Notes under the pieces: model-generated
Seen by the model: only the letters and a program-made list of their open reading frames with translations
What the model was told of the DNA's origin: nothing
Database searches by the model: none
From: Elsinoe ampelina
Taxonomy: Eukaryota
Assembly (NCBI GenBank): GCA_010093995.1
Contig: ML992504.1
Coordinates: 1,492,360 to 1,556,359 of the forward strand
Reading direction: 5' to 3'
Length of the DNA stretch: 64,000 nucleotides
Made by a program: the position numbers and the translations under genes
Shown here: positions 1 to 15,725 of the stretch, piece by piece
How positions within the stretch are numbered: position 1 is the first letter of the stretch
How the letters are laid out: the number at the start of each line of letters is the position of its first letter

Positions 1-200
1 TAAGCTATATATACTATAAGCCTCTATATAGTAAGTAAAGAGCTAGGTAGGGGAGAATAATAGAGTTTTACTAGTAAACCTACTAGGCTAGATCTAGCAT
101 TTCTTACTATAAATCTTATATTACTAGATAGAGCTCTTTTAGACGAATCTAACGATATATAAATCTTCTATATCTAGTGCCTAATTAGCGTACTATCGCT
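1..200. mobile_element. RIP-degraded repeat/transposon relic (edge of an AT-rich block)
   Basis: Very AT-rich, saturated with TpA (tag/cta/tata) and depleted of CpA/TpG, no ORF; abrupt change to normal composition near 200. This is the signature of repeat-induced point mutation. Confidence 0.7.
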
Positions 201-605
201 AATATAAAACCGGGTAGCAAATCCCCCCCCGGGCCCCCCCCCTCCGCAAAAAGTCGTGAGACCTTTTTTTGGTTCCGCGCCAAGGCTGGGGTGGCCGGCT
301 TGAATCCGAAACAGCTGTACTGCGCCTCCGTAAAAGTTCGTATACACTGGCAATAGTCATATAGACAAGATGGATAGCTTCTTCATTCAACGGTCGCCGG
401 GACGCCACCGACTCAGCCTGGCAGGCCTAACCTCAAACCAAAGTGACTCAGCTGAGATGCTGCGCCGCTGTTCATCTCCATTCAACCATGGATAGCATAT
501 AAACAGCCGGCACCCGTCCCAGCGCCGGCTTCCTTTGATACTATCACGAGAAAAAGACATCCGACGAACAAGACTTCGGCAGTCTTGTGTAGCTTCGGTG
601 GCAAT

Positions 606-3600
606 ATGGCTGTAATCAAGCTTGACACGTACCGCATCCAAGATCTGGAGCGGGAACGGGTCAAGGAGCTGGTCACTTACCTCAATGATTTGCGGGCCAG
701 CGTCCGAGGCAATCACACTGCCATCCTTCGGTCATTAATCGAAGCCTGCGAACAAGATCTGATTACATCACATACCTTCAGCATTTTCATTCCCTGGGCA
801 AAGTCTCCTGATGTCCTCGCTGTATGCTTGAAGCATGAATCGGAAACATCCATACGGCAAGCGGCTATTAAGGAACTCGGCAAACAGCTCAGGCGACCAC
901 AGAGATTCGACTGGGAAAGCGCCTGGAGGGCTCTGGGAGAAACCGAAGGATTGGTGAAGATATTTGGTAGGACCTCTGTGATTGACATCAAGTACTTGGC
1001 AGCCAGCATTGGACGAAGCGGTGCCGGCAAGCGGAATGATAGACGAGAGCAATGTGTCGAGGATCTGTTGCGGGCTTTACTTCCAGATGTCTACACTGCC
1101 AGCAAAATACGGAGCAAGGAGATGCGCCCAGTCCAGCATCACTACGCAAGAATGCTAGGCGCCTGCTCACAGAGCTTCGTCAACGACATCCTGAACGCTC
1201 GCAACGACACCAATCCTTTGTACCGACAGCGTGACATGAGGAGACTGCTAAAGAGCCATCGGACGCTACTGAGGGAACGAGCTATTAACCATCTCTTCAG
1301 CAAGGGTCCGGAGGATCAAGACGTTCCGCAGTACCTTCAAGAATTCCTGCAGGGTGACAGAGACTTCGCACTCATGGCACTGCAAGGACGTCTTGACGGC
1401 ACGGTCACAGATCAACGGTGGGGTAGGAACGCAGAACTAGATGTATTGATACCCATCATCAAACGCCTTTCCAGATACCGGCGAGCTCCTGTCGAGCAGA
1501 AGCGTCAGGTTCACGATCTGGTCAAGCTGGGCCTGGACCTACTGTGGACGGACAAAAGCCGGACAAAGGCTGGATCTAAGGACCTTTGGGCGATGACGTT
1601 CTCACGTTGGCAGGTCAAGCCGGATGAGTATGAAGATGTATTGAGACTTGGCTTCAAACTAGGACTTGCCAAACTACCACACCAGGATTTTGGTAGCTAC
1701 TCAGCGGTACTACGGCGTCTGGATGCAGCTCCCAGAAAGCGATTACTGCAACTCTGCTACCTCGATATCCCGGACAAGGGATTGGATCTGTTCTCCGCCG
1801 AGGACTACTCGGCCTTCGTCAATGAGATCTGGCCTTTAGACCTGATCCGTCTGTTGACCAAAGACGACCAGATCCGACTATTGAGGAAGCTGTCTCAATT
1901 AAACCCAGAATACAGCTTTCTGCAGACGTCGAATGCCAATTCCATAATTCCTGACCGCAAGGCTGGATCGAGCAAGAATTTCAATGTCGACTTGTGCCTG
2001 ACAATGCTTCAGCGTGATGATCAGAAGGTACAAGAGGATGCTCGACAGGCGATCGACAGATTCCGCAAGAAGGCTGCCACATCTAGGGAGCCGGCTGATA
2101 GAGCCAAATTCGCGAAAGCAGCAGCAGCTTGTGCTATCGCCACCGGGAATCTGGACACCTACGGCGAGACGGTCACATGGCAACAACGTTTTGTTAGGGA
2201 TCCTCTCGCGGTAAAGACGCTTTTCAGTCGGAACGTCGTTCATACTGAGGAGGGTGTCGAGCTTCTGACTGGAATCGACGAAATTGAGAGACTATCTTCA
2301 ATCTCAAAGGGTGACACCACACTACTACCAGAGGTAGTGGCACATGGGATCGACAAAGCGGATGCCATGCTCAGAACCTTCCAAGAGTCGTACCTGACTG
2401 CGAAGCTGGAGCCGTCATTCCAAGAGTATGATTGGACCCACGTCAAAGCCTTATTTGCTACGGTCTTCAGTGCACGTGTGCTACGTGCTGAGATCACACA
2501 AAAACGTTTCGCTGTCCCACAAAGCAAAGTCTTTCTGGTAGTGTGGAGAGCCTGGCTAGCATCGCTTGAGTGGCTGGACAGCCAATTCCTCTCAAACCTC
2601 ACGGTACCAATCCATGGCTTGCTTGGCAGGTTGACGCCTACTATGCTCGCCGACTGTACGAGATCGTTGCTCACCCTTGGCACCGAGAGCCGAAAGAGGC
2701 GGGAGGCTGAGGGTAGAAAGAAGGCAGGCTCGACAGATGATATTCTTGAGCAACTCTCGTACTATGCTCTGTCACGGTTGGCAAGTAGCGACAGGCCTGC
2801 CCTTGCATCGCCACTGATTCTGCAAACAATTCTCGATCGGCCAGATGCCAGTTCGTGGCACAGGATCTTGCTGTCAATCGGGTTCTTGAAACGACTACAA
2901 GCTGCAGAGGCCCACGATTTGCTGCTCAAGCTAGCGCTGGGGATTGGTGAGAAGCTGGAAGAGCAATCCTACGTGAGAGTAGGGGAGGTGGAAGTGCCAA
3001 AGCACGTACCGTCGCAGCCTGCTGTCAAAGTCACGACAGTGAAATATCTGGCTCAGCTTCTGAACGACGCTGATTTTCTGCCTAACGATGCGGCCGTCGA
3101 AATATTGATCGAACTCTTCAGAGCGGCACAGCATAGAGACATTCGTCTCGCAGCACTCGATAGTCTTCTGAGCCTACTGGACAGCCTCTGCAGTGGGACA
3201 CAGGATCAGTTGAAGACGAACCCGGCCGTGCTTGATATCATGGACGCCTTGGGGACGATCGTACCAGTGGCTGGCAGTATCAATGAGCGGAAACCATTGC
3301 AGGACACAGATTGGACGGAGGCGGAGGCAACGTCAATCCTACCAGAGCTCTCCGATCTCGGCTCAGACGACTTGCCTCCTTTGATGGCGGCGCTCGTTAG
3401 TGCTATCAACGGCACATCCCACCGTGGTCTTAAGAAGCTGGAGGACAGCTATGTGCAGGATCTGATCATTCCTGTGTTGGAGAGATGCCAGAAGGAACAT
3501 ACCAAATGGATCGATATGTTCCTTGCCAAACACGAAGCTACGACCTTGAGAGATGACGTTCCGGAGACCCCACTCGCACCTCGTCTCTGGACGGTCATAC

Positions 3601-4526
3601 TACGCAACCATTATCTCGCCATTCCCAAGAAGCATCTCGAAGCATTCAGCAAGTATGCTTTGCACTGCATCAAGCCAGCGGCAGCAGTCAAAGCGTTCAA
3701 CGCAAGGCTACGGACGGATTTAGAGCTTCGAAAGAATCCAGAGGTTCAGCACTGGCTAAAGATCTATGACCGAAGTCCGGTTGGATTCTTCGCCTCGGAG
3801 ACCAACACGCTGCTGGTAGTCTTGCATCAAGTACGAAATCTGCCGGACGAACGTGTCATATTGCTCGACATGATCATGCAGCACGCAGAACTCTATCTCG
3901 AGGACTACGAAAAATCTCCGGATACCTGGGACACTTTCTTGACATATCTTGCGCCGTCTGCCAGCTTCATCAGCGATCCGGGCCAGTTCGAGGAATACTC
4001 CAATACTCGTCGGCACCTGACCGAGCAGTTCGTCAAGCTGGTCAAGAAGAGACGACAATCAGGCCAGCGTCTCGTTCTACCTACATCGACCAAGACAGAA
4101 TTCTGGCTCCTCCACACCTTGACCTGGTACAAAGACGACGACAACTGCGAGGCTTTTACTATGAGGCTTGAAAATACCCTGAGACACATGCTACAAGAGG
4201 ACGATACGACCATCCTACGCTGGCGCAAGATCGCACGCGAAGCATGCGAGGTGATTTCGGCGGTTCTCCGCACGGATGAGGAGCGATTGAGGGTCGCGAA
4301 CCATCTTGGCAAGCTCGAGCGGCGCGAACAAACCAAGGGAGAGAGTCGTCAAGACAGTTTGACAGTCGATCTGGTGAAATTGGGAGTGGCTCTGAAACTT
4401 ATCGAGCAGTGCAAGGACAAGAAGCAGGCTAATGAGCTGATGAAGGATCGCGTGGAGGAGTGGCAGAACCATGATTCTGATGCTGTAAGGGCGAGGGTAT
4501 TTCACTGGCAGAAGAAGCGATCATGA
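606..4526 (+). CDS. Large intronless hypothetical protein (~1306 aa), Leu/Ala-rich, probably alpha-solenoid
   Basis: Uninterrupted ORF 585..4526; first ATG at 606 (MAVIKLD). Helical repeat-like segments such as DIRLAALDSLLSLLDSL; no motif I can name. Confidence 0.8.
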   Translation: MAVIKLDTYRIQDLERERVKELVTYLNDLRASVRGNHTAILRSLIEACEQDLITSHTFSIFIPWAKSPDVLAVCLKHESETSIRQAAIKELGKQLRRPQRFDWESAWRALGETEGLVKIFGRTSVIDIKYLAASIGRSGAGKRNDRREQCVEDLLRALLPDVYTASKIRSKEMRPVQHHYARMLGACSQSFVNDILNARNDTNPLYRQRDMRRLLKSHRTLLRERAINHLFSKGPEDQDVPQYLQEFLQGDRDFALMALQGRLDGTVTDQRWGRNAELDVLIPIIKRLSRYRRAPVEQKRQVHDLVKLGLDLLWTDKSRTKAGSKDLWAMTFSRWQVKPDEYEDVLRLGFKLGLAKLPHQDFGSYSAVLRRLDAAPRKRLLQLCYLDIPDKGLDLFSAEDYSAFVNEIWPLDLIRLLTKDDQIRLLRKLSQLNPEYSFLQTSNANSIIPDRKAGSSKNFNVDLCLTMLQRDDQKVQEDARQAIDRFRKKAATSREPADRAKFAKAAAACAIATGNLDTYGETVTWQQRFVRDPLAVKTLFSRNVVHTEEGVELLTGIDEIERLSSISKGDTTLLPEVVAHGIDKADAMLRTFQESYLTAKLEPSFQEYDWTHVKALFATVFSARVLRAEITQKRFAVPQSKVFLVVWRAWLASLEWLDSQFLSNLTVPIHGLLGRLTPTMLADCTRSLLTLGTESRKRREAEGRKKAGSTDDILEQLSYYALSRLASSDRPALASPLILQTILDRPDASSWHRILLSIGFLKRLQAAEAHDLLLKLALGIGEKLEEQSYVRVGEVEVPKHVPSQPAVKVTTVKYLAQLLNDADFLPNDAAVEILIELFRAAQHRDIRLAALDSLLSLLDSLCSGTQDQLKTNPAVLDIMDALGTIVPVAGSINERKPLQDTDWTEAEATSILPELSDLGSDDLPPLMAALVSAINGTSHRGLKKLEDSYVQDLIIPVLERCQKEHTKWIDMFLAKHEATTLRDDVPETPLAPRLWTVILRNHYLAIPKKHLEAFSKYALHCIKPAAAVKAFNARLRTDLELRKNPEVQHWLKIYDRSPVGFFASETNTLLVVLHQVRNLPDERVILLDMIMQHAELYLEDYEKSPDTWDTFLTYLAPSASFISDPGQFEEYSNTRRHLTEQFVKLVKKRRQSGQRLVLPTSTKTEFWLLHTLTWYKDDDNCEAFTMRLENTLRHMLQEDDTTILRWRKIAREACEVISAVLRTDEERLRVANHLGKLERREQTKGESRQDSLTVDLVKLGVALKLIEQCKDKKQANELMKDRVEEWQNHDSDAVRARVFHWQKKRS

Positions 4527-4935
4527 TGTCGGTTGTACGTATGGATATGATTAATCGGCGGCTGTTCGATGCGATTGGTCGTTAGAGTAGAGAGAGTATG
4601 ATCACGTGATGAAATTGGATTTCGACTTCTGACTTCTGACTCCCGACCAGCGGCTAAATGCCATTCTCTGCACTCGGTTCAGTCAGTCCTCTTCAGATAC
4701 CCAACGTACCGTGTGATTCCTCACTTTCGGCCTTGCCAGATTGTCTCAAATCCATCAAAGCTCGCCGCGGTGCCTCCCGGTTCCTTATTGGCTGGGCCAT
4801 CAGCCGCAATGCACGCGGTGAGATGTGGCGCATCCAACAGACACGGGAACACGACAAACCGCTGATTTGCCTTGATGTCTTCAACACTCATCACAGGATG
4901 CTCAAAGGATTCATCCCAGCATCTCCGATGTTTAC

Positions 4936-7900
4936 ATGGCTCGGGCGTTGCGCTTCGAGGATTACACGATAGCATGGATAGCAGTCCTGCGGATCGAAGC
5001 ACAAGCGGCTGTTCGGGTGCTGGATGTGTTACATGAAGGCCAGTTCCCCTTGTCTCCTAACGATGACTACATCTTCATCGGTGGCGAAATCAACAACCAC
5101 AATGTAGTTATCGCAACCTTTCCTAAGGGACAGACAAACGGCACCAACTCCGCTGCGGCTTTAGCAGGACATATCAAGGCACGCTTCCCGAATCTGTGGT
5201 TTTCATTGCTGGTAGGAGTCGCGGCTGGGGTACCTAATTTGCAGGCCTCGGATCCAACTCAGCGACGAGACATTCGGCTCGGAGACGTATTAGTGTGCGT
5301 GCCTGAAAGGAATAGCACAGGCGTAATCCAATACGATCAAGGAGTCTATGTTTCGAGCGACCAAGGTGCTGGTTTCGTATTGAAAGGCAGACAAGCTGAG
5401 ACGATTGCTGTTGTTCGCAGCGCCATAGGATATATTAGTCTCACAAAGAGGAATCCTTTCAAGCATGGTCAGCCCTTTGCCACCTGGTTAGAGGAAGTAC
5501 AAGCCGATCATGAAGATAGCTTGTTCGACTGTCCACCTCAAGTGGAAGATGTCCTGTACTGCACACGAGAGGAAGGTGCCCACGCTTCGACAAGGTTCCC
5601 TTTGGATCGAAAGCCCCGACCTCCTGACCACAGAACTAGGGTCTGGTATGGTAAGATTGGATCCGGCAACGGTCTTATCATAAGTGCGAGAAAGCGAGAT
5701 ATGCTCAGAGATGAACACGACATCATAGGCTTGGAGATGGAGGCAGCTGGAGTCATGAATGTCCTACAAGCTGGCGTGATACGCGGCGTATGTGACTATG
5801 CCGACGGTCAGAAGGATAAAAGATGGCAGCCATATGCAGCTGCGGTAGCTGCGGTCTATGCAAAGGGAATCCTATCAAGCATTGATCGGCGGAACGAAGA
5901 GAGAGTGACTAAGGTCTCTACCATCGTCCTGAGCTCCAAGCGCAGCAAGTCTGCTACACGAGATCGGTCGCAAAGTGCATCGAAGAGATCAAGAAGCAGA
6001 AGTGCTGGACGGCGGGTGACATTCGCTGAGGAGAACACTTACTATCAGCTATCGCCTACCGACTCCGCTATTGATGCTTTGGACAGATCGATCAACTCCG
6101 CTAGCTTGGAGTCCGAGCAAGCAGATCACAATGACTATTTCGCCAGTCATCACGATCGGACCGGCAAAGTTGGCGCATCCTCGATGTTCGCAGATCCGCT
6201 AGAGAATACAGACCACGATTCGATTGCCTCGGCCAGACCTTTCAAGCTGGATAACGTCACAGTCATTCATCATCCACTGAATGGACTACCGGACTCAGGT
6301 CGGCGTCCTGGTAGCCAGACTCTGGCTCATTGGTGCGAGACAGAGTCGCCGGCGCTCATGTCGGCCTGCTCCGGCATCTGCGACTCTCTCAACCATCTTG
6401 CTCTGAACATCGACACAGTAGAGACCGCAGCGGGCCTCTTATCTGGCCTCGCAAATGACCTACTTCTCATCCTTCACGATATTGAAGCCATAGCAAAGCG
6501 AAGAACGATCGAGAGGCGGGACGACCCTTCTGTCAGGAAACTCAATGCACCAGATCGGCTATTCACGAACTCCCAGATATGCAGCCAGGTACTTCCACAG
6601 ATGGGGAGAGCTATTGAAAGCATGGTCGCTGAAGACTGTCACCAAATTTGGCTTCAGCACACGGTGGATGCTCTAAGTGATGTGGGTCGAGATCAGACGC
6701 TGTGGTATTTGCGACATTGCCTCGAGGTCATGCTAGGTCTGATGCAAAGCGCATTGGATGGGTTACAGTCGACTTACTACCAGACATCTGTGGCCATACC
6801 ATACCAGGATCAACAGCGCCAGCTTTCCCCTGATTCGGAGCCACGAGTAGCGATCAGTGCGCCTGTCAGACAGCCCTCGCCGTCCTACCTTTCCTCGACG
6901 TTGCCTGCTGTGCACAAGCGTAGGGCGAGATCGTCAAATGTCATGACTTCGGAATCGGCAGAGATTCGGCTGGGGGCCGTAAGACAGATCCTGGCGCCTC
7001 GAACACCCGAGAAGCCAGCAAGTCTGTACGACGAGCAGTGGCCACCTTCCAATAACCCTCATGTCCCAGATCTGCCCGGTAATTCTTGGGCGAAAGGCTC
7101 AGAGGCGCCCGCAGAGGCTCAGTCTGACAGGACGAGCGGCGAACCTGCTTACGCAGCTCAGCATCCGCCCACTACTTCCTCGCAGGATTGGATGCAATAT
7201 TATGCAGATGCGCAACAAACGATCGACCAAGCTTCAGCCTCTGCATCCCACGGATTCGACAATCCCTACTCCCCCCGTAGTCAATCAGCAATTTTCGGCC
7301 CAGTTCAAGCAATGCATAGCGGCTCACTGCATTATGATCCCACAATGATGGCTTGGCGGCGAAAGTCGACCAGAGGCCCGCCACTGAGCCCCCAATGGGG
7401 AAGCACACCGCTGGCTAGCTCTCCTACCGCACCAACTCAGGTTGCCACTAAAGAATTACAGCCGTATCAACCTCGGGTGTATCAGGCGTACAGGCCACCA
7501 GCACATGTGGACGCTTCCTCGCTTTACCCTGTTGAATCTTCCCTACCAACCGCTTCTCGTCCTTCGCCGCTCGTGAATCTGGAAACTCCAAGCTTCCCAC
7601 AAGACAACGACAGAGCTCGCCACAACAGCATAGTCACTGCCAGGTGGTCCTCGACCCAGATCCTCCAGCCGTTGCAAAATCTGCGACATGTCCTCGAAAG
7701 CACCTTGAAGTCTTCCATCGCAAAAGACTGGCATGCAGATTGTCTATCGAAAACGCTTCTAGCATCAGTCATCTCACTATGCACACTAATCGAGACATTT
7801 CGATCCGTCATGCTGACCTTGGAGCGCCAGAAGTGGCGCTGGACCTGGGACGAATCGGCTCTGCAGCTAGTGTTACAAGAGATGAATGCCCGCACAACCA

Positions 7901-8385
7901 AGCTCATGGGCTGGGATGTGGATGTCCGGGAATTAGCGACAGACAGGAGCAGCCCAGAATGGCTCGGTCGACCGCGCGAGGAAGCTGTCTTGGACATGAT
8001 GAAAGGTGTGCAATTGCCAATCATCACGGAGCTGGAACATCTTCTGGCCGATACGAAGAACCAGATTCACACAGCCATGAATATCTTCGACGTCACGCAA
8101 GAAGAACGTGCGGGTGGCATGGATGAGCTGGTGCAGGCTGTCGCTACACTTGGCTTCGGCGAAGACCAAGCTAGAGAAGCGCTGAGGTTCACGAGATCCG
8201 CAGACGGCTATCATATGGACAAAGCGGTGAAGTTCCTGGCGGGAATGTCGAAGAGGGGTCTGAGTCTGATTGAGGAAGGGAAGGCGGTTTTGAGGCAGAA
8301 GCAGGATCGCTTGCCGGTGGGGCAGGGCGTCATGATGTATGCCAGTCTGGCGGAGGCGACTGGCGGGTTGAGACCGCCTGATTGA
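4936..8385 (+). CDS. PNP_UDP_1 (nucleoside phosphorylase) domain protein with helical domains and a C-terminal UBA-like domain
   Basis: N-terminal ~320 aa carries fungal PNP_UDP motifs: YTIAWIAVL.IE, LLVGVAAGVP, DIRLGDVLV, YGKIGSGN, GLEMEAAG, IRGVCDYAD, WQPYAAAVAAVYAK. C-terminus LVQAVATLGFGEDQAREAL...MDKAVKFL resembles UBA. Confidence 0.85.
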   Translation: MARALRFEDYTIAWIAVLRIEAQAAVRVLDVLHEGQFPLSPNDDYIFIGGEINNHNVVIATFPKGQTNGTNSAAALAGHIKARFPNLWFSLLVGVAAGVPNLQASDPTQRRDIRLGDVLVCVPERNSTGVIQYDQGVYVSSDQGAGFVLKGRQAETIAVVRSAIGYISLTKRNPFKHGQPFATWLEEVQADHEDSLFDCPPQVEDVLYCTREEGAHASTRFPLDRKPRPPDHRTRVWYGKIGSGNGLIISARKRDMLRDEHDIIGLEMEAAGVMNVLQAGVIRGVCDYADGQKDKRWQPYAAAVAAVYAKGILSSIDRRNEERVTKVSTIVLSSKRSKSATRDRSQSASKRSRSRSAGRRVTFAEENTYYQLSPTDSAIDALDRSINSASLESEQADHNDYFASHHDRTGKVGASSMFADPLENTDHDSIASARPFKLDNVTVIHHPLNGLPDSGRRPGSQTLAHWCETESPALMSACSGICDSLNHLALNIDTVETAAGLLSGLANDLLLILHDIEAIAKRRTIERRDDPSVRKLNAPDRLFTNSQICSQVLPQMGRAIESMVAEDCHQIWLQHTVDALSDVGRDQTLWYLRHCLEVMLGLMQSALDGLQSTYYQTSVAIPYQDQQRQLSPDSEPRVAISAPVRQPSPSYLSSTLPAVHKRRARSSNVMTSESAEIRLGAVRQILAPRTPEKPASLYDEQWPPSNNPHVPDLPGNSWAKGSEAPAEAQSDRTSGEPAYAAQHPPTTSSQDWMQYYADAQQTIDQASASASHGFDNPYSPRSQSAIFGPVQAMHSGSLHYDPTMMAWRRKSTRGPPLSPQWGSTPLASSPTAPTQVATKELQPYQPRVYQAYRPPAHVDASSLYPVESSLPTASRPSPLVNLETPSFPQDNDRARHNSIVTARWSSTQILQPLQNLRHVLESTLKSSIAKDWHADCLSKTLLASVISLCTLIETFRSVMLTLERQKWRWTWDESALQLVLQEMNARTTKLMGWDVDVRELATDRSSPEWLGRPREEAVLDMMKGVQLPIITELEHLLADTKNQIHTAMNIFDVTQEERAGGMDELVQAVATLGFGEDQAREALRFTRSADGYHMDKAVKFLAGMSKRGLSLIEEGKAVLRQKQDRLPVGQGVMMYASLAEATGGLRPPD

Positions 8386-8665
8386 GACACAAGATCGCTC
8401 AGTATATAGAATTACTGTCCTAATGATGCGAAACGACCAGCCGGCGGTTTCTTCATCGATATGCAGGGCAATATCGGTGGGTAGATCTCATTGGCCACAT
8501 GCTCAGCCGCAGATGCGCCTTAGGAAGGCAAGAGTGGGGTGGCCCTCCAACCTCCCTCATCTTCTCTTCCACTTCCTACCTCTCATATTACATTGTTGCA
8601 CAAGAGTATAGCAATGCGACATCCTTAAGCCATGGCGGAGATCCGCCGAGACTACCGACCAAGCC

Positions 8666-11125
8666 ATGGCAACGCTCCTCCGGTACGAAGACTACACGAT
8701 TGCGTGGATCGCTGTACTACCAGTCGAAGCCGAGGCGGCGGTGGGCATGCTCGATCGTCGCCACGAAGGACGCTTTCCAATGGGACCTGGGAATAAGAAT
8801 CTGTTCATCGGCGGCGAAATCTACGGACACAACGTCGTTATCGCGACCTGGCCTCGAGGTCAGACCTACGGTATCGGTGCTGCGGCTGAGCTCGCCACAG
8901 ACGTCAAACGGCGCTTTCGCAAGATCTGGTTTGCACTTCTCGTAGGTGTTGCAGCTGGCATACCTCACCTGGACGCTGGTGAACAGACGAAAGACATTCG
9001 CCTTGGTGACGTGCTTGTCTGCGTCCCAGATCAAGTCAACAGCGGCATCGTTCAGTATGATTACGGTAAATGGCTGTCGAGCGACAGCGGTGTCAAGTTT
9101 GTACCTAATGGCCGGCAAGCTGAGACTGAGAGCGTTATCAGAACAGCTATCAGCTATATAGACCTGACGACACCATCGCCATTCGAGGACGGCAATGAAT
9201 CTGCAGAGCACCTTAGGATCTTCCAGGCTAGGCAAACAACATCCAAATTCATCTGCCCGTCACAAGATGACGATATTCTGCTCGCCACCAGAGGTAGCGA
9301 CTCTACCGGCGTCGTGAGTGTACCTATCGAGCGCACGAGGCGCGCCGAGTCTCACCGCACGTACGTCTGGTACGGAAGGATGGGTTCTGGTAATGCACTG
9401 GTCAAGAGCGCTCGGAAACGCGATGAGTTGCGCGATGAGCACGGCATTATCGGTCTGGAAATGGAGGCCGCCGGGACCATGAACATTCTACCCGCTGGGG
9501 TCATCCGCGGCGTGTGTGACTACGCAGATCGGCAGAAGGACAAGCGTTGGCAACCCTATGCAGCGGCCACGGCCGCCGCGTATGCTAAGAGCATACTCAA
9601 AAACACTCCCTTGATACAAACAAAGACAGCAACCCGCTCATCACGGACACCCAGACCATCGCCGGTGACCGTTGTCACCAGACAGCGGCGTCATCATCAT
9701 CGTGGCCGAGGTATCCCGCAGTCAATCCGAGAACGTCTTGAAAGTATACCGAGCGATGACAAGACTGGTGATGCCGATGCAGAGGAGAGTGTGATATCTT
9801 ACAATCATGATACTATGCAACCAACAAAGAGCGCATCGTCGCTGTCGACCTCCACCCTTCCTTCCAGAGCCCTACACGGCTCAACCAAACCAAAGGACAT
9901 TGATGTCTTGCCCGAGGACTCACCCCTGGTGAAATTTGCTCGGTCCTACCAGCTTCACTCTTCTTTCAGAACCTCTCCTCCCAGAGAGTTTCCTTCCGGG
10001 AATGCATCAAGTTCTGTATCAGCACATTGTGATGCACAGTCTGCAAACAAGAGAAGCAAATATCAATCCCCAACCGTTGAGGATGAAACACCTTCTGCCC
10101 CCGCAGCAATAGAGCCCAAGAAGGAACAGCAAAGCCTGGTAGTGCCAGATGGTACCATCGATGCTGTCTCTCCTCTTGATCTACAACCTACGTCACAAGA
10201 GACGCCCGATCAATATAGTGTGAAAAACGTTCGCGAGGTTGACCCTCAGTATGAGCGAGCTCGGACAACCGATCCAGCTCGTGCAGATACTGATGAACGT
10301 CGGAAGGAACCTCGAGCGTCCACCATTCGCGCGAAGCAAGTAGTGGCTGATCATCGATTCGTCCTGGCAACGTTTGATCGATACTCTCCAGGTCCCGGCA
10401 TTGGGACTCTTCCTGACGATTTTCCGAAACCGGATATGTCATGGCAGCTCCCGCCAAAAGCTATGGACGATACTGAAGAGATCGATACTGCGCAAGATTG
10501 CGAAGTTGTATCGCTTCATTCAACATCGTCAGCGGGTAGCGTCCCAAGCGGCTTTGAGTATAGCGATACAGGAGCTGTAAGGTCCATGAACATGAAAGAT
10601 GATTCCTATCACGAACGGAAACCCCAGACGGACGTTCCCGATCACGACAAGATCAGCAGCCGTCGACATAGAGCGCGTTGGAGATCGGACAATGCTCGTT
10701 GGTACGCAGTCTATGACTGGCGACAAGCTGTTTCGAACGCAGAGCATGAGCCGTCATGCCAACCTCCACCCCGAATACCGCCCTCAAGCCCTCATGCGTC
10801 CCTGGATCCTTATGCATCTCCGGCCAAGTATACGCCTCGAGACTCTTATGCCTCTCCAGCCCCTTGCCCGCCTCCAGATCCTTATGCGCGACCGACCCGG
10901 AGCGGATGGGATTCTCTCCGGGGCTACCATGGCGACCCGGGAAGAGTCGAAGCACATACGTACCCCTACTCGCAAACGAGACCGACCGAGCCATATGATC
11001 CATACTACGGATATGGTAGATCTAGGGCTCATGAGTCATACCACTCACCCCCGCCTTCTCCGAACGCGTGCGAAGAATTCGAGCGATTTTTCGGACCTAA
11101 GGCATCGCAGTATGGGGAGACCTGA
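8666..11125 (+). CDS. Second PNP_UDP_1 domain protein (tandem paralogue) with a disordered Ser/Pro/Tyr-rich tail
   Basis: Same motif set (YTIAWIAVLPVE, LLVGVAAGIP, DIRLGDVLV, GLEMEAAG, IRGVCDYAD, WQPYAAATAAAYAK); 819-aa intronless ORF. Confidence 0.85.
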   Translation: MATLLRYEDYTIAWIAVLPVEAEAAVGMLDRRHEGRFPMGPGNKNLFIGGEIYGHNVVIATWPRGQTYGIGAAAELATDVKRRFRKIWFALLVGVAAGIPHLDAGEQTKDIRLGDVLVCVPDQVNSGIVQYDYGKWLSSDSGVKFVPNGRQAETESVIRTAISYIDLTTPSPFEDGNESAEHLRIFQARQTTSKFICPSQDDDILLATRGSDSTGVVSVPIERTRRAESHRTYVWYGRMGSGNALVKSARKRDELRDEHGIIGLEMEAAGTMNILPAGVIRGVCDYADRQKDKRWQPYAAATAAAYAKSILKNTPLIQTKTATRSSRTPRPSPVTVVTRQRRHHHRGRGIPQSIRERLESIPSDDKTGDADAEESVISYNHDTMQPTKSASSLSTSTLPSRALHGSTKPKDIDVLPEDSPLVKFARSYQLHSSFRTSPPREFPSGNASSSVSAHCDAQSANKRSKYQSPTVEDETPSAPAAIEPKKEQQSLVVPDGTIDAVSPLDLQPTSQETPDQYSVKNVREVDPQYERARTTDPARADTDERRKEPRASTIRAKQVVADHRFVLATFDRYSPGPGIGTLPDDFPKPDMSWQLPPKAMDDTEEIDTAQDCEVVSLHSTSSAGSVPSGFEYSDTGAVRSMNMKDDSYHERKPQTDVPDHDKISSRRHRARWRSDNARWYAVYDWRQAVSNAEHEPSCQPPPRIPPSSPHASLDPYASPAKYTPRDSYASPAPCPPPDPYARPTRSGWDSLRGYHGDPGRVEAHTYPYSQTRPTEPYDPYYGYGRSRAHESYHSPPPSPNACEEFERFFGPKASQYGET

Positions 11126-11134
11126 GCTGTGAGG

Positions 11135-11410
11135 ACAAGTTTGACCATATACCGTGTTCTGCTGGTCCCATTGTACACGTGAAGTGTACGCCGCTAGCCC
11201 ACACTCGGTACTATTCGCAACTTCGACCACCTCGCTCTCATCGGTGAATGACTTCGCTACCACTATCGGACCGAAGAAATCTTCCTGCAAGTCATCCGCA
11301 TCCTCGCTGGGTGCCCAGACAACAAGGTTGGTTTGACAGAGCGACCCTTGCCGGTCTTCGCACCGCCAGTCGACAGCTGTGCCTCTGTCTTTCCCTTGTC
11401 CAAACATTCG
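11135..11410 (-). pseudogene. Frameshifted aldehyde dehydrogenase fragment
   Basis: Minus strand reads DKGKTEAQLSTGGAKTGKGRSVKPTL in one frame, then QEDFFGPIVVAKSFTDESEVVEVANSTECGLAAY in another. These match the ALDH consensus GK.EA.L.TGG...G.FV.PT and EEIFGPV....F..E.E....AN...YGLAA. No N-terminus or full ORF. Confidence 0.7.
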
Positions 11411-11868
11411 ATATGATGGTTCCCGAGGCGGACGGAATAGGCATGTCAGTCTCATCATGCTCAGGAGGGTGGGGAGAGGTTGTATCCTCTTATATAGCTG
11501 TCTATGTCGCTGGGGAGGTAGCTGGTGACGCCGGAGGAGGCGGCATATAGAATTGTTTATTCATAGAGTGAGGACTCGCCGAATGGTTTCGGTCAACACG
11601 TTCGGGTTGGTAAAGGGATACATTGAGTGTGAGAAGTATTGCCACTCTTCGAACACGAATGTTGTGCCGTCCATTGAGTGTTCCGAGAACCTCGTGGTGA
11701 ATAGTATAGGCTGGCAGATATATTGTTACGTAAGGAATGAAAGAAACACATGAACCATTGATGCTCCGGTGGGGCAAGCCTGGCACAGCCACACCTAGAT
11801 ACCCATCCTACTCCTACTACTTACCTCAATCTTCACTATCCTTCCTGCATCAGTTCGGCATATTTGCG

Positions 11869-12927
11869 ATGGCAGACAAAGAAGAATGTGAGGGTTCAGA
11901 AGACGAGACAGCAAAACATGATGACGGCCGCATTGTGCGAATCGAGGAGTTGCGGGGTACCAGGTTCGTGATCGACATAGATCGAGCTCACCTCCAGAAT
12001 ACCCGATTCATGGCGGAGTATGATATAGCGACCAGACAGGTCTCCGAATACGTCAACGGCATTGTCAACAAAGGATGGCCAGCAGAGGAGATGTGGGAGA
12101 GCATACGGGATCCTGCACAAGTCATTCGCGATGAGTGCGAGGATGTCTTCTCGAAGCTGGCTTTGGGGAGCGACGATTACCAGGGTCGTCCATTCTCTGA
12201 TCTCTGTCGGATGCGGACGTATCACATCGACTTTGAGAAGAGGGAGGCAGGGTGGCTAGATGTGATAGTGCGCGATGGAAAGGTGTACGCGCCTGGCTTC
12301 GGGATACGACCTCTTCCGACGACAGAGCTGCCGGCATCTTGTAAAGATGTGAAGCAGATTGAAGCATCCCAAGTGATGATCATGGAGTCAGAAGGATATC
12401 CTGCTCATGGAAAGGTCGAGGTCGATGGCGTCGTGCGCTGGCTCAAGCCCAGATCATACGAATCGGTCGACTTTGACAGAGAGCTGCCGATACTTGTTCA
12501 GGTACAACAGCTGCGACAGCAGGGCAGCCGGATGAGAGTTTCGAATCTTGCTGGTCTGGTACTTTGCGAGCAGACCGTGGTAGCAATGCTGCTGGATAAC
12601 ATTATACCATCAGCCGAGGGCGGGCAGCTCCTGGACGAGGGCTTGTGGGAGCTGCATGACAGACATGCACAATGGGAGTCGCAAGTGAGACGGTCTGTCG
12701 AAGAGCTCCATTCGCACGACATTGTCTGGGGCGATGTCAATGCCGGCAATGTGTTCATCGACAAGGAATATAATGCCTGGGTCATTGACTTTGGCGGAAT
12801 GAACAACCCAGACTTTGTCGACGATGACAAGCGAGAAACCAAGGAAGGTGACTGGCAAGGTGTGCAGAGAATGTTTGGGGAATGGTTGCCAGAGAGGTAT
12901 GCTGAAATCCGACAAGCCAAAGGGTGA
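11869..12927 (+). CDS. Atypical fungal protein kinase-like protein
   Basis: LHSHDIVWGDVNAGNVFID (catalytic loop variant) and VIDFGG (DFG). Likely start MADKEE at 11869 within ORF 11737..12927. Confidence 0.75.
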   Translation: MADKEECEGSEDETAKHDDGRIVRIEELRGTRFVIDIDRAHLQNTRFMAEYDIATRQVSEYVNGIVNKGWPAEEMWESIRDPAQVIRDECEDVFSKLALGSDDYQGRPFSDLCRMRTYHIDFEKREAGWLDVIVRDGKVYAPGFGIRPLPTTELPASCKDVKQIEASQVMIMESEGYPAHGKVEVDGVVRWLKPRSYESVDFDRELPILVQVQQLRQQGSRMRVSNLAGLVLCEQTVVAMLLDNIIPSAEGGQLLDEGLWELHDRHAQWESQVRRSVEELHSHDIVWGDVNAGNVFIDKEYNAWVIDFGGMNNPDFVDDDKRETKEGDWQGVQRMFGEWLPERYAEIRQAKG

Positions 12928-14830
12928 AACTGCTCAGAGTACGGCACGTGACTATCGGCAGACAGGACCACTTTGGTGATGGAGTGATGGGTCCAACGTC
13001 GCCATTGAAGTTTGGGGATTCAGTCGTCGTGTTGAACGGGGCGCGTCACAAGTCTCAACGTTTGTCGGGGAATTTGAGGCGGTGAAATCCAGCCTGTCTC
13101 AGACTAACACCAGTATATGATGGAATTGGCCATGTTGTCTTTAATTGGAGCAAGTATCGTCGTTCGGAAGCCATTGAGGTTACAAACGAGGAAGGAGACT
13201 CATCTGACTGACGGATGATCTCTTGGAAAGTCTCGTCCTTGGTCGAATCATTTGTTAATGCCGTGAATAGCGCGTGGCATTGGCGGGCTGTCGCGGGCTG
13301 GAGAGTGAGACATTGTGAGCATCTCTACGAATTCGTGGCGAAGTAGAGCTCTGGATTCCATCAAGTGGCGCTCTGATCCTGCTCGATAGCGTGCGGGGCT
13401 AGATGATTTCCACGTGGCCAGCCGCAGGAGTTAGCAGGAAAAAGTCTGCAGAGACACGACCATTCGTCATGCTGCTAGTATGGTGCGGCGACGGTGTCAA
13501 AGGGGGTTTTTGCGATGGGTGTGCAGGGAGGGATGCCATGAGGAAACGAATCGTTGGCAGGCGAACATGATTGGCGTGCCTGATCTGCAGAAGTCTATCG
13601 TGCATGTGCATGTCAGTCTTGAAGGTGTCGGCACGCGAGGGGCAGAATGGTCGAGGATTGCAAGGATGAGAGATTTCTCACATGTGTTGAGAGAGTGCGA
13701 TTGGCGGACGAGAGCATGAATTTAGGCTCCCCACGATCCTGCCCGCTCTCGCGTCCGCTCTCGTGTCCGGTGTGATGCGTGGCAGCCATGCACATCAGGC
13801 GGCGCTTACAGGATTACTGGCTTGAGGGAGACACACTCTTTTGTGCCGTGTCGACCAGGTTTGACACTCCAGGTCGCCATGTCTATCTATCTATGAGAGG
13901 GCTAGCCCTGAAAGAAGTGAGAGGATGGTGTGTCAATTAGTGAAACCCTGCAGATTCATGCCATGAGCGCCACTGACGTGACCGAGAGCTTGCAAGTCGT
14001 CGTCTGTGCCTCGATGAATTGTATCGTGTCCTTGTGCGACCATGGACAAACATCAGAGAATCAGAGCAGAGGAATCGTGCAAGATTTTGCTGGTGTTCAA
14101 AGGATTGCCATAATATTTGGAGGAGGATTCGAAGGAAGCAGGAAGGATAGAGTTGGGTTTGACACTTTGCTCTTGCAGAGTAGTCTAAATATCACACCGT
14201 GTCTTGTTTAAATATCACACATTTGCCCACCGACTCGGTGCAAAATGGAATGCCGCGCGGAGCCTTCTGTTCTGCGACACCCAGCCCCTCGATTCCCTTG
14301 ATTCGGCCTCGTCGTACAAAAGATAGCAATAGTTGTGTTTGTTTCTTCAAGAGTCAAGATTGAATAAAACAAAAAACAAATTCCCCATCGTCAGATCCAC
14401 TCTCTTGTCAAGCAGAGAAGGTCCGAAACGGGATCAGCAGGCAATCTGAAACCGGCAGAGCGTCCCAACTCTCTCGTCCTCACTCTGAGCCTTTCAGCCT
14501 CTGAAGAGCGAGACAAGAGACAGAGACAGGGATACTTGACAAGGAGCGGCACCGGACTCGCGCGTCGACTATTATATCTCCACCGTCTCTCTCTCTCTGA
14601 TTTACAAAGTGTAATAAACGATCATCATCATCCAACCGTCTCGACAAGTCCCCGACTCGCACCGTTTTTTCAGCTCCAGCGTGCTCTCCAGCGTGCGCCT
14701 CCTGAAAATCCTCTGTCTTCGTCCAAGATCACCTGCTCATCGTTCCCAATCGACCCCCATCGACCCGCCGCTCCCTCCAAACCGAAACACAACCGTCTTC
14801 TGGTCCCTCACTACTCTGTACTTGGTCAAA

Positions 14831-15395
14831 ATGGTAAGCTAGCCCCTCTCAGAAACCTGCCTTGGCTCTTTTCTGCATTCCTCGTCACCGTCTATCTTCC
14901 TACACTCACGACCGTTGCTTTTTCCCGTCTCTCCCGCAACCTCGTCGACTCCACCTAACAACCTCTCTCCAGTCCTCCACCACCACCACAACTGCCAATC
15001 GCACCTCTGTCCGCTTCAGCACTTACTCCGGCGCACCTTCTCTCCATCCATCCATCGCACCCACCATGGACTCCAACTCGTCCCAGCCCGTCGACAGCGC
15101 CCGCAACACTATGATCAAGATCGAAGACAAGGTCGCCCGCAGCCCATCCACAGCTTCATCCCAAGACGCCCGCTCCGCCGAACTCAAGTCGTGGGCTGCC
15201 ACCTTCGAACGCATGTCCGACCAGCGTCTCGAGAAGCAACGCTTTGTCCCATCCGACAAGAAGGACGACGAGATTTCCACAAACGCCCTCGGTGCCAAGC
15301 TCGAGAGGGCCCTCGGGAGGAGAATGTCCGGTCAAGACGCCGTCTTCAAGAGCAGGGTCATGAACGAAAAGGCTGTCGAGATTGCTGCCTCATGA
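14831..15395 (+). CDS. Small hypothetical protein, join(14831..14833,14973..15395)
   Basis: ATG followed directly by GTAAGC donor; CTAAC branch at 14955 and CAG acceptor at 14972 join in frame to SSTTTT...ALGAKLERALGRRMSGQDAVF. Strong C-ending codon bias. Alternative start at 15066. Confidence 0.7.
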
Positions 15396-15725
15396 GTCGC
15401 TTTCTGTCTGCACTTCAACCACGAATGACGGCCAGATACCCCCGATAGACCGGCTGGACGACGAATGCCGCTTCTCTCTGTACGATTGTCGACTTTACCC
15501 CCCAACATATCTTTTGATTGTTTCCATCACGGCGGACGATCGATACCTCTCTTTGCTACTGGATCATGTCTTTCTACAAAGGAGCAGACGGTGTTAATGG
15601 TGTCAACTTGTCCCACAGTAGAAGTTCCGACTTTCATGTCTTTGTACCATATACATTACGCTAGCGATCTGAATTCTACTTTCACCTCATCCTCGCTCCC
15701 CCATCCCTGCCGCTCCACCTCCCAT

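Follow-up and report, generated by a model that had tools for sequence, protein, structure and literature searches.

The four genes at the left end of the window, that is, of the whole 64,000-nucleotide stretch of Elsinoe ampelina DNA analysed here, probably constitute a mosaic of independently evolving, separately transcribed genes, not one sensor-effector-regulator system. A sequence-only reading had seen in them a defence or allorecognition cassette, with an unrelated set of accessory genes as its alternative; its domain calls hold, its idea of a functional unit does not, and the alternative fits best. The functional unit lacks support because gene 1 comes from a broad family found without partners resembling genes 2 or 4 and is itself of Diaporthe-like ancestry, because the counterparts of genes 1 and 3 are on contigs other than that of the gene 2-kinase pair in E. 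fawcettii and a PNP gene is missing from all 23 other kinase loci, and because the remainder of the window consists of housekeeping genes, without NLR or HET genes.

Layout, transcripts and surroundings of the block

The block consists of four plus-strand open reading frames (606-4526, 4936-8385, 8666-11125 and 11737-12927). The longest contigs of the RNA-like run X3 (its kind was guessed as RNA) span all four in colinear order without a gap or joint (0 of each); GT..AG joints do occur in this run at the adjoining genes (14832/14972 and 17020/17073). The four genes are therefore intronless and tightly packed, the ends of their contigs being separated by 86 bp, a 26-bp overlap and 124 bp. The earlier description of four co-oriented, intronless, packed genes is thus borne out, each frame being present and lying on its own unspliced contig. 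Gene 4 starts at 11869 and not at 11737, as indicated by a contig that begins at 11824 and by the length of the recorded protein P0152 (352 aa). The features are as follows:

1..230, no strand: AT-rich RIP-like relic at the window edge, 230 bp visible
350..4596, + strand: gene 1 transcript-like contig (CDS 606-4526, P0001, 1306 aa)
4682..8620, + strand: gene 2 transcript-like contig (CDS 4936-8385, P0002, 1149 aa)
4936..5985, + strand: gene 2 PNP_UDP-type nucleosidase domain of the fungal NLR N-terminal type (aa 1-350)
6136..6735, + strand: gene 2 conserved middle block, Leu/Ala-rich, of no known family (aa 401-600)
7636..8385, + strand: gene 2 conserved C-terminal block (aa 901-1149)
8125-8247, + strand: gene 2 UBA-like stretch, a sub-threshold UBA_7 match (aa 1064-1104)
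8595..11700, + strand: gene 3 transcript-like contig (CDS 8666-11125, P0003, 819 aa)
8666-9625, + strand: gene 3 PNP domain (aa 1-320)
11824..13561, + strand: gene 4 transcript-like contig (CDS 11869-12927, 352 aa)
12376-12927, + strand: gene 4 kinase-like core (aa 170-352)

To its left the block appears to adjoin a RIP-affected repeat, to its right a run of housekeeping genes. Positions 1-230 carry a RIP-like signature (TA/AT 1.74, (CA+TG)/(AC+GT) 0.17, GC 33%), in agreement with the RIP relic proposed at the left of the block. A second AT-rich RIP-like island adjoins core genes at 60.8-61.9 kb, so such islands are not special to the left edge. The relic has no similarity to the remaining window, no tandem repeats were found in the DNA, and no upstream motifs or repeats are common to all four genes beyond the PNP paralogy. 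Weaker codon bias than in the core genes, another feature ascribed to the block, was not confirmed: the four genes have ENC values of 56-58 and eight of nine neighbours lie at 50-61, HSP90 (ENC 33) being the only biased one.

The rest of the window encodes housekeeping genes, and no NLR, HET or other immune-type domains occur in the scanned window ORFs of at least 130 aa. The Walker A motif is absent from all four proteins and from their Elsinoe orthologues, whereas the true NLR controls P0035 and P0037 have it at 374 and 368; NACHT, NB-ARC and repeat families of Pfam gave no match in the four proteins. Accordingly, both PNP proteins were correctly described as lacking a P-loop NTPase and repeats, with no Walker A motif and no Pfam NOD or repeat match.

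PNP domains and tails of genes 2 and 3

The N-terminal domains of genes 2 and 3, about 320 aa long, are common to them and to fungal NLRs such as Cladophialophora immunda PV07_11010 (NB-ARC/TPR) and Hyaloscypha variabilis NLRN, with 45-60% identity to the N-termini of NB-ARC/NACHT proteins (E 1e-80 to 1e-112). Both match the PADLOC model PDLC00759 (CBASS 'PN-superfamily' effector) with E 3.9e-7 for gene 2 and 1.3e-7 for gene 3, matches as large as those given by a true NLR; Pfam PF01048 itself yielded only E 0.11, and the PDB search with gene 2 retrieved an MTA/SAH nucleosidase at E 0.009. In an alignment of 121 sequences, both copies keep E21, D30, H33, G94-G98 and D112-D117, as well as R225/R228/R233, E267-M268-E269, D287 and D290. 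The columns of E21, E267/E269 and D287 are 94-98% conserved among these sequences, and the EME and (S/C)D motifs align to the MTA/SAH nucleosidase structure. By comparison with MtnN, E21, E267/E269 and D287 would be the catalytic residues. Homology and conserved motif residues together uphold the assignment of both copies to the NLR-effector type. The two genes go back to an old tandem duplication and are 60% identical in the PNP domain, over 315 aa only.

The accessible text of the preprint by Rousset et al. attributes ATP-nucleosidase activity to a fungal NLR PNP domain and includes the H. variabilis NLRN among the proteins tested. The two window proteins differ from fungal NLRs in having neither NACHT/NB-ARC nor Walker A nor ANK/TPR/WD repeats, and their tails are unrelated to those of NLRs; the NOD and repeat parts would have been replaced by other tails, leaving a PNP domain that appears immune-type and Cap17-like. 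They resemble in this respect the stand-alone PNP_UDP effectors with a C-terminal amyloid motif (PUASM, HRAM/NLR12), which are NOD-less with an NLR-type PNP domain first and, according to the part of Wojciechowski et al. (2022, PMC9815663) available to us, are activated by a neighbouring NLR. However, genes 2 and 3 lack a PUASM/PP pattern, their tails measure 500-800 aa against about 25 aa, and the partner NLR of the PUASM effectors has no equivalent among the window ORFs scanned. Searches of P0002, P0003 and their orthologues for PUASM, PP and RHIM-core patterns, made with simple regular expressions rather than profiles, found nothing; translated in six frames, the window yields a single PP-like match, at 42972 and outside the four genes. 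By their PADLOC matches, the two domains would share the defensive-clade PNP fold of the ATP nucleosidases Cap17 (CBASS) and DtcC (Detocs), but unlike in those systems there is no cyclic-nucleotide sensor or receiver domain here, and the kinase is of eukaryotic type, not a histidine kinase.

Behind the PNP domain the two proteins diverge. The middle block of gene 2 shows 74-96% identity to E. batatas per 50-aa window and no Pfam match, against linker windows of 32% (aa 351-400) and 40-54% (aa 601-750). The C-terminal block is 82-98% identical to E. batatas and 25% to the E. fawcettii tail; at 82-98%, the tail blocks are more conserved than the gene 2 PNP domain. Matches to UBA_7 remained below the cut-off of 27 bits both for P0002 (E 0.0018, 18.6 bits) and for the E. 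batatas orthologue (E 0.0029, 17.9 bits), and the E. fawcettii orthologue had none. A likeness of this tail to a 'karyogamy protein' cluster (atlas score 0.82) was at chance level and was discarded. The gene 2 tail may be described as two conserved helical blocks plus a UBA-like module, and that of gene 3 as a putatively disordered Ser/Pro-rich region (composition S13 P12 R9), whose windows at 301-819 are 6-44% identical to the E. fawcettii orthologue. One contig contains a minor in-frame joint excising part of the gene 3 PNP domain.

Both proteins are predicted to be cytosolic adenine-nucleotide nucleosidases that would stay inactive until their tails bring the PNP domains together. They could in this way deplete nucleotides, as NLR-fused copies do, but by a route that needs no NOD.

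Families of the kinase and of the 1306-aa protein

By its sequence, gene 4 is a small Bud32/RIO-like kinase of a Dothideomycete/Chaetothyriales family, the only two groups among the named matches. Like Bud32, RIO and Kdo kinases it combines Lys and Glu in the N-lobe with an HxxxxWGDxNxxN catalytic loop and a DFG motif (D307-F308-G309), and it ends about 45 aa past the latter, as small kinases of this type do; in contrast to them, it stays below every curated cut-off and has a family-specific N-terminal region of 170 aa. Among 34 homologues K193 and E205 are invariant and D289, N294, D307 and F308 at least 90% conserved. The profile matches AMPK/Snf1 kinase domains in the PDB (E 8e-8); in Pfam gene 4 scores 20.3 bits (curated cut-off 31.7), and the homologue P0155 passes with 36.4 bits. 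The kinase was therefore rightly called atypical, being small and Bud32/RIO-like with a complete catalytic motif set. It shares with the E. fawcettii kinase a long branch that evolves fast and is separate from the E. australis copy. In E. batatas, the gene 1 and gene 2 orthologues are full length, while the kinase model is missing its catalytic half.

Gene 1, as judged from its alignments, is a member of a broad, uncharacterised Pezizomycotina family. A word-indexed search retrieved 29 proteins (the query, two from Elsinoe, seven from named Diaporthe species, one from Pseudogymnoascus and 18 unnamed), which made it look like an orphan restricted to these three genera. An exhaustive phmmer search overturned that view with 576 clusters at E<=1e-3 and 310 at E<=1e-30, counted at 50% identity; patchiness from a word-indexed search can be an artefact, as in this case. 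Named members include Microthyrium, Pyricularia oryzae MGG_05994, Mycoblastus, Loxospora, Meristemomyces and Endocarpon. Uncharacterised Pezizomycotina relatives align over nearly the full length at 33-43% identity. Identity is 54-62% to Diaporthe, 40% to Microthyrium and 33% to the cluster representative that includes Pyricularia; Microthyrium and Elsinoe belong to the same class. Gene 1 is a short form, as 89 of 149 relatives among the matches listed have 1600-1799 aa, and the two-block relatives insert about 320-370 extra residues between its residues ~655 and ~710. MGG_05994 appears as 'Unknown' and down-regulated in the one mention found in print (PMC3037901, in the text accessible to us).

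As had been proposed, gene 1 encodes a large protein without known domain: it has no Pfam, NCBIfam, PADLOC or PDB match, PDB profile searches returned nothing better than E 0.22 and 0.13, and none of 12 family members tested carries a Pfam domain. A solenoid is not shown: no internal sequence repeats were found (three weak overlapping window matches concern a single region pair) and the HEAT/TPR matches are sub-threshold, with HEAT_2 at E 0.003, below the cut-off, and one homologue marginally matching TPR_TTI1_N (27.0 bits). Neither hypervariable repeats as in NLR sensors nor an amyloid signalling motif occur in gene 1. A candidate likeness to bacterial DUF7825 (atlas score 0.89, 146 shared features) was at chance level.

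In a careful 18-row tree, Elsinoe and Diaporthe form a clade at 100/100, with the Elsinoe copies nested within Diaporthe at 98/100 and 100/99; a 28-row quick tree agrees with it on gene 1. Because the Elsinoe copies group with and nest inside Diaporthe, the trees suggest horizontal transfer of gene 1 into the Elsinoe lineage from a Diaporthe-like Sordariomycete. Diaporthe monophyly was not quite rejected by the AU test (p 0.058, and p 0.212 in a poorly rooted set), which makes the direction of the transfer tentative.

Linkage and competing explanations

One E. fawcettii contig carries both the kinase (D9617_5g071100) and the gene 2 orthologue (D9617_5g071120), two locus tags apart, whereas the gene 1 homologue (D9617_1g085210) and the gene 3 orthologue (D9617_47g010770) are on other contigs; linkage of all four genes in a related genome, which a cassette would lead one to expect, is thus limited to the neighbouring genes 2 and 4. 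Their proteins are 48-54% identical to those of the window, and synteny breaks just upstream: for the gene that precedes the gene 2 orthologue in E. fawcettii, the window contains no homologue. The E. batatas genes are known by the locus tags 005074, 005092 and 005151, given with a contig of one length, and not by positions. Clusters of window core proteins contained no E. batatas member (two of ten ORFs had clusters), and no E. batatas orthologue of gene 3 came up among proteins of 631-2011 aa.

Elsewhere, PNP, gene 1 and tail matches were all absent from 23 other (metagenome) kinase loci, which total 171 kb, include seven with at least 4 kb on both sides and represent about 4-5 independent contexts. 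The neighbours are hexokinase, PGI, ADA2, Cu-ATPase and GH12. The gene 4 family would then normally reside among housekeeping genes, and its adjacency to gene 2 is most simply explained as inherited synteny within Elsinoe. In at least seven named Diaporthe species with gene 1 relatives no gene 2-tail or kinase homologue is listed; this absence, like that outside Elsinoe, comes from the word-indexed search, the type that made gene 1 look falsely patchy.

The full cassette, with sensing or scaffolding in trans by the 1306-aa protein, execution by the two PNP proteins and regulation by the kinase, accounts for four co-oriented, packed genes adjoining a repeat relic and for the immune-type PNP domains. 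Its first component fits badly, since gene 1 belongs to a widespread family with relatives in those Diaporthe species, is of different ancestry, is unlinked from the others in E. fawcettii and has neither sensor-like repeats nor an amyloid motif, and we regard this explanation as highly improbable. With gene 1 as a bystander, genes 2-4 might form a NOD-independent effector module whose mini-kinase gates the PNP protein or proteins, for instance by phosphorylation of the Ser-rich tails. By analogy with bacterial Detocs, in which a kinase is coupled to and can gate the PNP effector (Rousset et al. preprint, in its accessible text), this would make sense of head-to-tail, nearly touching genes, of a complete kinase motif set on a fast-evolving branch, and of the kinase two locus tags from gene 2 in E. 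fawcettii at ~50% identity. It seems unlikely nevertheless: adjacency within one genus is expected by common descent, the 0/23 kinase loci have housekeeping neighbours, E. batatas combines a kinase model without its catalytic half with full-length orthologues of genes 1 and 2, the gene 3 orthologue is on a separate contig in E. fawcettii, and neither PNP protein contains a domain that is receiver-like or known for phospho-binding.

Genes 2 and 3 could also be leftovers of NLR genes minus NOD and repeats, with no function or a dampening or decoy role. The missing parts, the poorly conserved gene 3 tail (6-44% to E. fawcettii), the missing E. batatas orthologue of gene 3 in the size range given above and the joint cutting the gene 3 PNP domain are compatible with decay. 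Yet both ORFs are long, intact and covered by RNA-like contigs, active-site motif residues persist in both after an old duplication, and the gene 2 tail blocks are conserved above the PNP domain; moreover, no similarity to an NB-ARC remnant follows the PNP domain, NLR matches ending at 25-34% of query coverage. We therefore consider such leftovers quite unlikely. The mosaic has its own difficulties, namely the unusually tight packing and co-orientation, the gene 2-kinase neighbourhood kept in E. fawcettii despite 48-54% identity and an upstream synteny break, and the fast-evolving kinase branch of the window and E. fawcettii viewed beside the Detocs precedent (as far as the preprint's accessible text describes it). 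A very unlikely possibility, argued by analogy, is that gene 2 and the adjacent, fast-evolving mini-kinase, possibly with gene 3, constitute a NOD-independent, phosphorylation- or ubiquitin-gated ATP-nucleosidase death module. If true, Elsinoe would have built, from the effector domain of an NLR and a kinase of housekeeping type, a eukaryotic equivalent of the PNP effector that a kinase controls in Detocs.

Under the mosaic reading, tight clustering by a repeat relic is insufficient for calling a fungal defence cassette, and the relatives of each of the four genes tell differing stories. For the large Pezizomycotina family of gene 1 (576 clusters at 50% identity) there is neither a domain model nor a known function, and one of its branches appears to have moved between Diaporthe and Elsinoe, a scab fungus, that is, between unrelated plant-pathogen lineages. 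The NLR-type ATP-nucleosidase domain would occur on a non-NLR chassis too, and the conserved helical and UBA-like tail blocks of gene 2 raise the question of how such an effector may be switched on without a NOD.

Structure and surroundings of the four genes

The left end of the window carries four genes on the + strand, on which we placed contigs from four public runs, guessed to be RNA (positions 1–18000). GT..AG joints are present at neighbouring genes (14832/14972 and 17020/17073, each in all four runs), hence the runs contain transcript-derived sequence. The open reading frames (ORFs) and the contigs of one run, X3, are as follows:

606–4526, + strand: gene 1, ORF of 1306 aa; X3 contig 350–4596, colinear, no gap or joint
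4936–8385, + strand: gene 2, ORF of 1149 aa; X3 contig 4682–8620, colinear, no gap or joint
8666–11125, + strand: gene 3, ORF of 819 aa; X3 contig 8595–11700, colinear, no gap or joint
11737–12927, + strand: gene 4, ORF of 396 aa; X3 contig 11824–13561, colinear, no gap or joint

Since all four X3 contigs are colinear and uninterrupted, the genes are intronless and very tightly packed, and together with the ORFs this bears out the co-oriented, intronless and packed set described in the sequence-only reading. From gene 1 to gene 4, the contig ends are spaced by 86 bp, a 26-bp overlap and 124 bp, a contig break being no proof of separate transcripts. The gene 4 contig begins at 11824, past the ATG at 11737, and the recorded protein of this genome is 352 aa long, so that the true start of gene 4 is at 11869.

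One contig of run X6 omits 52 bases with GT..AG ends at 9089–9142 and carries one extra base, which removes 17 codons net, in frame, from the PNP domain of gene 3 and may represent a minor alternative splice. Upstream of gene 1, contigs of X3 and X4 match just ~40 bp (278–319) with unrelated sequence on either side; this could be a short repeat element or a piece of another transcript.

A RIP relic had been proposed at the left edge, and positions 1–230, all that is visible of it, indeed have a clear RIP-like signature (TA/AT 1.74, (CA+TG)/(AC+GT) 0.17, GC 33%). A second RIP-like, AT-rich island lies alongside core genes at 60.8–61.9 kb (GC 28%, TA/AT 1.93). It contains a run of N (assembly gap) and directly adjoins the EDC4-like core gene. 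The weaker codon bias formerly ascribed to the four genes relative to core genes did not hold: their effective number of codons (ENC), 56–58, falls within the 50–61 of eight of the nine neighbours, strong bias being confined to HSP90 (33). Otherwise the window has a housekeeping content and encodes a copper amine oxidase, an RNA cyclase-like gene, HSP90, a cutinase, an S10 carboxypeptidase, a deaminase, ORC5, a KDEL receptor, SelO and an EDC4-like protein. No NACHT, NB-ARC, HET or other immune-type family was found in the scanned window ORFs of at least 130 aa; the window is not a defence island. A spliced transcript-like contig at 14327–15666 (+ strand; intron 14833–14971) is by far the deepest contig in this stretch (1243 in X3, as against 10–68 for its neighbours), and its longest ORF (~140 aa, Ser/Ala/Thr-rich) is without Pfam match.

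PNP domains and kinase

Over their first ~320 aa, the proteins of genes 2 and 3 share 60% identity, with no alignment beyond. A search with gene 2 recovered 575 proteins at E ≤ 0.001. Among the 120 matches listed, all those from outside Elsinoe cover 25–34% of the query at 43–60% identity, and most bear NB-ARC or NACHT together with TPR, ANK or WD domains. The gene 2 domain is an NLR-type PNP effector domain, since these matches are limited to the N-terminus and come mostly from NB-ARC/NACHT proteins. Pfam PNP_UDP_1 barely matches it (E 0.11); the PADLOC model of the CBASS ‘PN-superfamily’ effector gives E 3.9e-7 and 1.3e-7 for the two copies and fits a true NLR about equally well (1.6e-8). 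An alignment of 121 domains revealed that both copies keep every strongly conserved residue (E21, D30, H33, G94–G98, D112–D117, R225/R228/R233, E267-M268-E269, D287 and D290), along with lineage-specific changes at otherwise conserved columns, e.g., 17, 135, 139, 145, 195 and 199. ATP-nucleosidase activity is reported for bacterial Cap17, DtcC and the PNP domain of a fungal NLR (Rousset et al. preprint).

The domain calls made from the sequence alone were good, including that neither PNP copy carries a P-loop or repeats: both proteins lack a Walker A motif and any repeat match. Known stand-alone PNP effectors described in PMC9815663 are marked by amyloid motifs, whereas a pattern scan found none in the gene 2 and 3 proteins. 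Compared with the E. batatas orthologue, the gene 2 tail is 74–96% identical over aa 401–600 and 82–98% over aa 901–1149, the linkers 32–62% and the PNP domain 76–92%; this tail is not junk. Its last block contains a UBA-like stretch, below the Pfam cut-off in both orthologues where it was seen, and the tail was matched in Elsinoe alone by a word-indexed search, a type of search that proved misleading with gene 1. The tail of gene 3 is Ser/Pro-rich and poorly conserved. A literature search found no publication uniting a nucleoside phosphorylase, a UBA domain and a fungal NLR. Homology and motif conservation suggest that the products of genes 2 and 3 would cleave adenine nucleotides under the control of their tails and independently of a NOD module.

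Gene 4 has 81 homologues, those with names belonging to Dothideomycetes and Chaetothyriales. In an alignment of 34 homologues K193, E205, the HxxxxWGDVNxxN loop (D289, N294) and D307-F308-G309 are conserved, and the gene 4 protein ends ~45 aa past DFG. With the family profile, AMPK/Snf1 kinase domains are matched over the stretch that runs from N-lobe to DFG (E 8e-8); the Pfam Pkinase cut-off is passed by one homologue, with the window protein below it. The E. batatas kinase model (P0153, KVT40_005074; 294 aa) tracks the family to about alignment column 300 and then diverges; it is devoid of the WGD and DFG motifs, with the catalytic half missing, owing either to a frameshift in the gene or to an error in its model.

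Linkage of the four genes

The sequence-only reading had proposed that the genes could form a defence cassette, with gene 1 as sensor or scaffold, genes 2 and 3 as effectors and gene 4 as regulator, or equally an unrelated set of accessory genes. The genes and their domains are real; the functional unit fared less well, and the evidence favours a mosaic over either a PNP–kinase module or the full cassette. The best named relatives of the proteins of genes 1, 2 and 4 are from E. batatas (88%, 74% and 80% identity); the three homologues there come from contigs of equal length and bear the tags 005074, 005092 and 005151, and no E. batatas gene 3 orthologue of 631–2011 aa is among the matches listed. 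E. fawcettii has its kinase (D9617_5g071100) on one contig with the orthologue of gene 2 (D9617_5g071120), two tags apart. The counterparts of gene 3 (D9617_47g010770, 52% over 463 aa) and gene 1 (D9617_1g085210) are on contigs separate from this pair. The gene 2 orthologue occupies residues 849–1967 of a 1967-aa model (P0034), probably two merged genes; the unrelated upstream part, residues 1–848, has no homologue anywhere in the window, which places a synteny break exactly between genes 1 and 2. We consider a complete four-gene cassette highly improbable.

That the PNP genes and the kinase alone form one module is unlikely, though several observations speak for a link: the packing is unusually tight, the gene 2–kinase neighbourhood is kept with proteins ~50% identical, the kinases of the window and of E. 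fawcettii share a long, fast branch that does not include the E. australis copy, and Detocs is a precedent for a kinase-controlled PNP effector. Co-occurrence failed to appear beyond Elsinoe: a metagenome scan with the kinase alignment yielded 23 loci (171 kb in total), none of which matches the PNP domains, the tails or gene 1, seven of them being flanked on each side by 4 kb or more and representing ~4–5 independent contexts. The kinase neighbours there are hexokinase, PGI, ADA2, copper ATPase, GH12 and the like. Altogether, the four genes are probably a mosaic of unrelated genes.

In two metagenome loci, the kinase homologue is directly followed by a PAN_4-domain gene (L012:2830–3756 and L021:637–1563). 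The window has a PAN-domain gene as well, but 17 kb off, at 30329–32665; this is probably a coincidence.

The gene 1 family and its ancestry

Gene 1 yielded nothing significant in Pfam, NCBIfam, PADLOC or two PDB profile searches. A word-indexed search returned 29 proteins (the query, two Elsinoe proteins, seven from named species of Diaporthe, one Pseudogymnoascus protein and 18 unnamed ones), the picture of an extremely patchy orphan, which was overturned by exhaustive phmmer with residues 1–1200: 576 clusters (at 50% identity) were matched at E ≤ 1e-3, of which 310 reached E ≤ 1e-30. Named members occur in Microthyrium, Pyricularia oryzae (MGG_05994), Mycoblastus, Loxospora, Meristemomyces and Endocarpon. 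In PMC3037901, the only mention in print that we found, MGG_05994 is listed as ‘Unknown’ and down-regulated in all treatments. The lengths of 149 listed relatives were checked (all but the 150th, P0027), and 89 of them have 1600–1799 aa; relatives with two matched blocks have ~320–370 additional residues in the interval that corresponds to gene 1 positions ~655 to ~710. Gene 1 is the short form of its family. None of 12 members tested has a Pfam domain, and a Walker A-like string occurs in 1 of the 149 relatives. Gene 1 has no internal sequence repeats that we could find, and therefore the ‘solenoid’ once proposed for it remains a guess.

Gene 1 identity is 54–62% to Diaporthe (Sordariomycetes), 40% to Microthyrium, which shares its class with Elsinoe, and 33% to the representative of the cluster that includes Pyricularia. 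A careful tree of 18 rows with its root on Pseudogymnoascus and Microthyrium unites Elsinoe and Diaporthe in a clade (100/100) with Elsinoe placed within Diaporthe at 98/100 and 100/99, and a quick 28-row tree agrees. The AU test of Diaporthe monophyly gave p 0.058 for the 18-row set and p 0.212 for an earlier, poorly rooted 11-row set. These data are best read as a cross-class transfer of gene 1 between the lineages of Elsinoe and Diaporthe, both plant pathogens, the direction from Diaporthe to Elsinoe being favoured but not proven; judged by title and the start of the abstract, no paper found deals with such a horizontal transfer of this gene. The gene 1 family of Pezizomycotina is a candidate for a new family definition.
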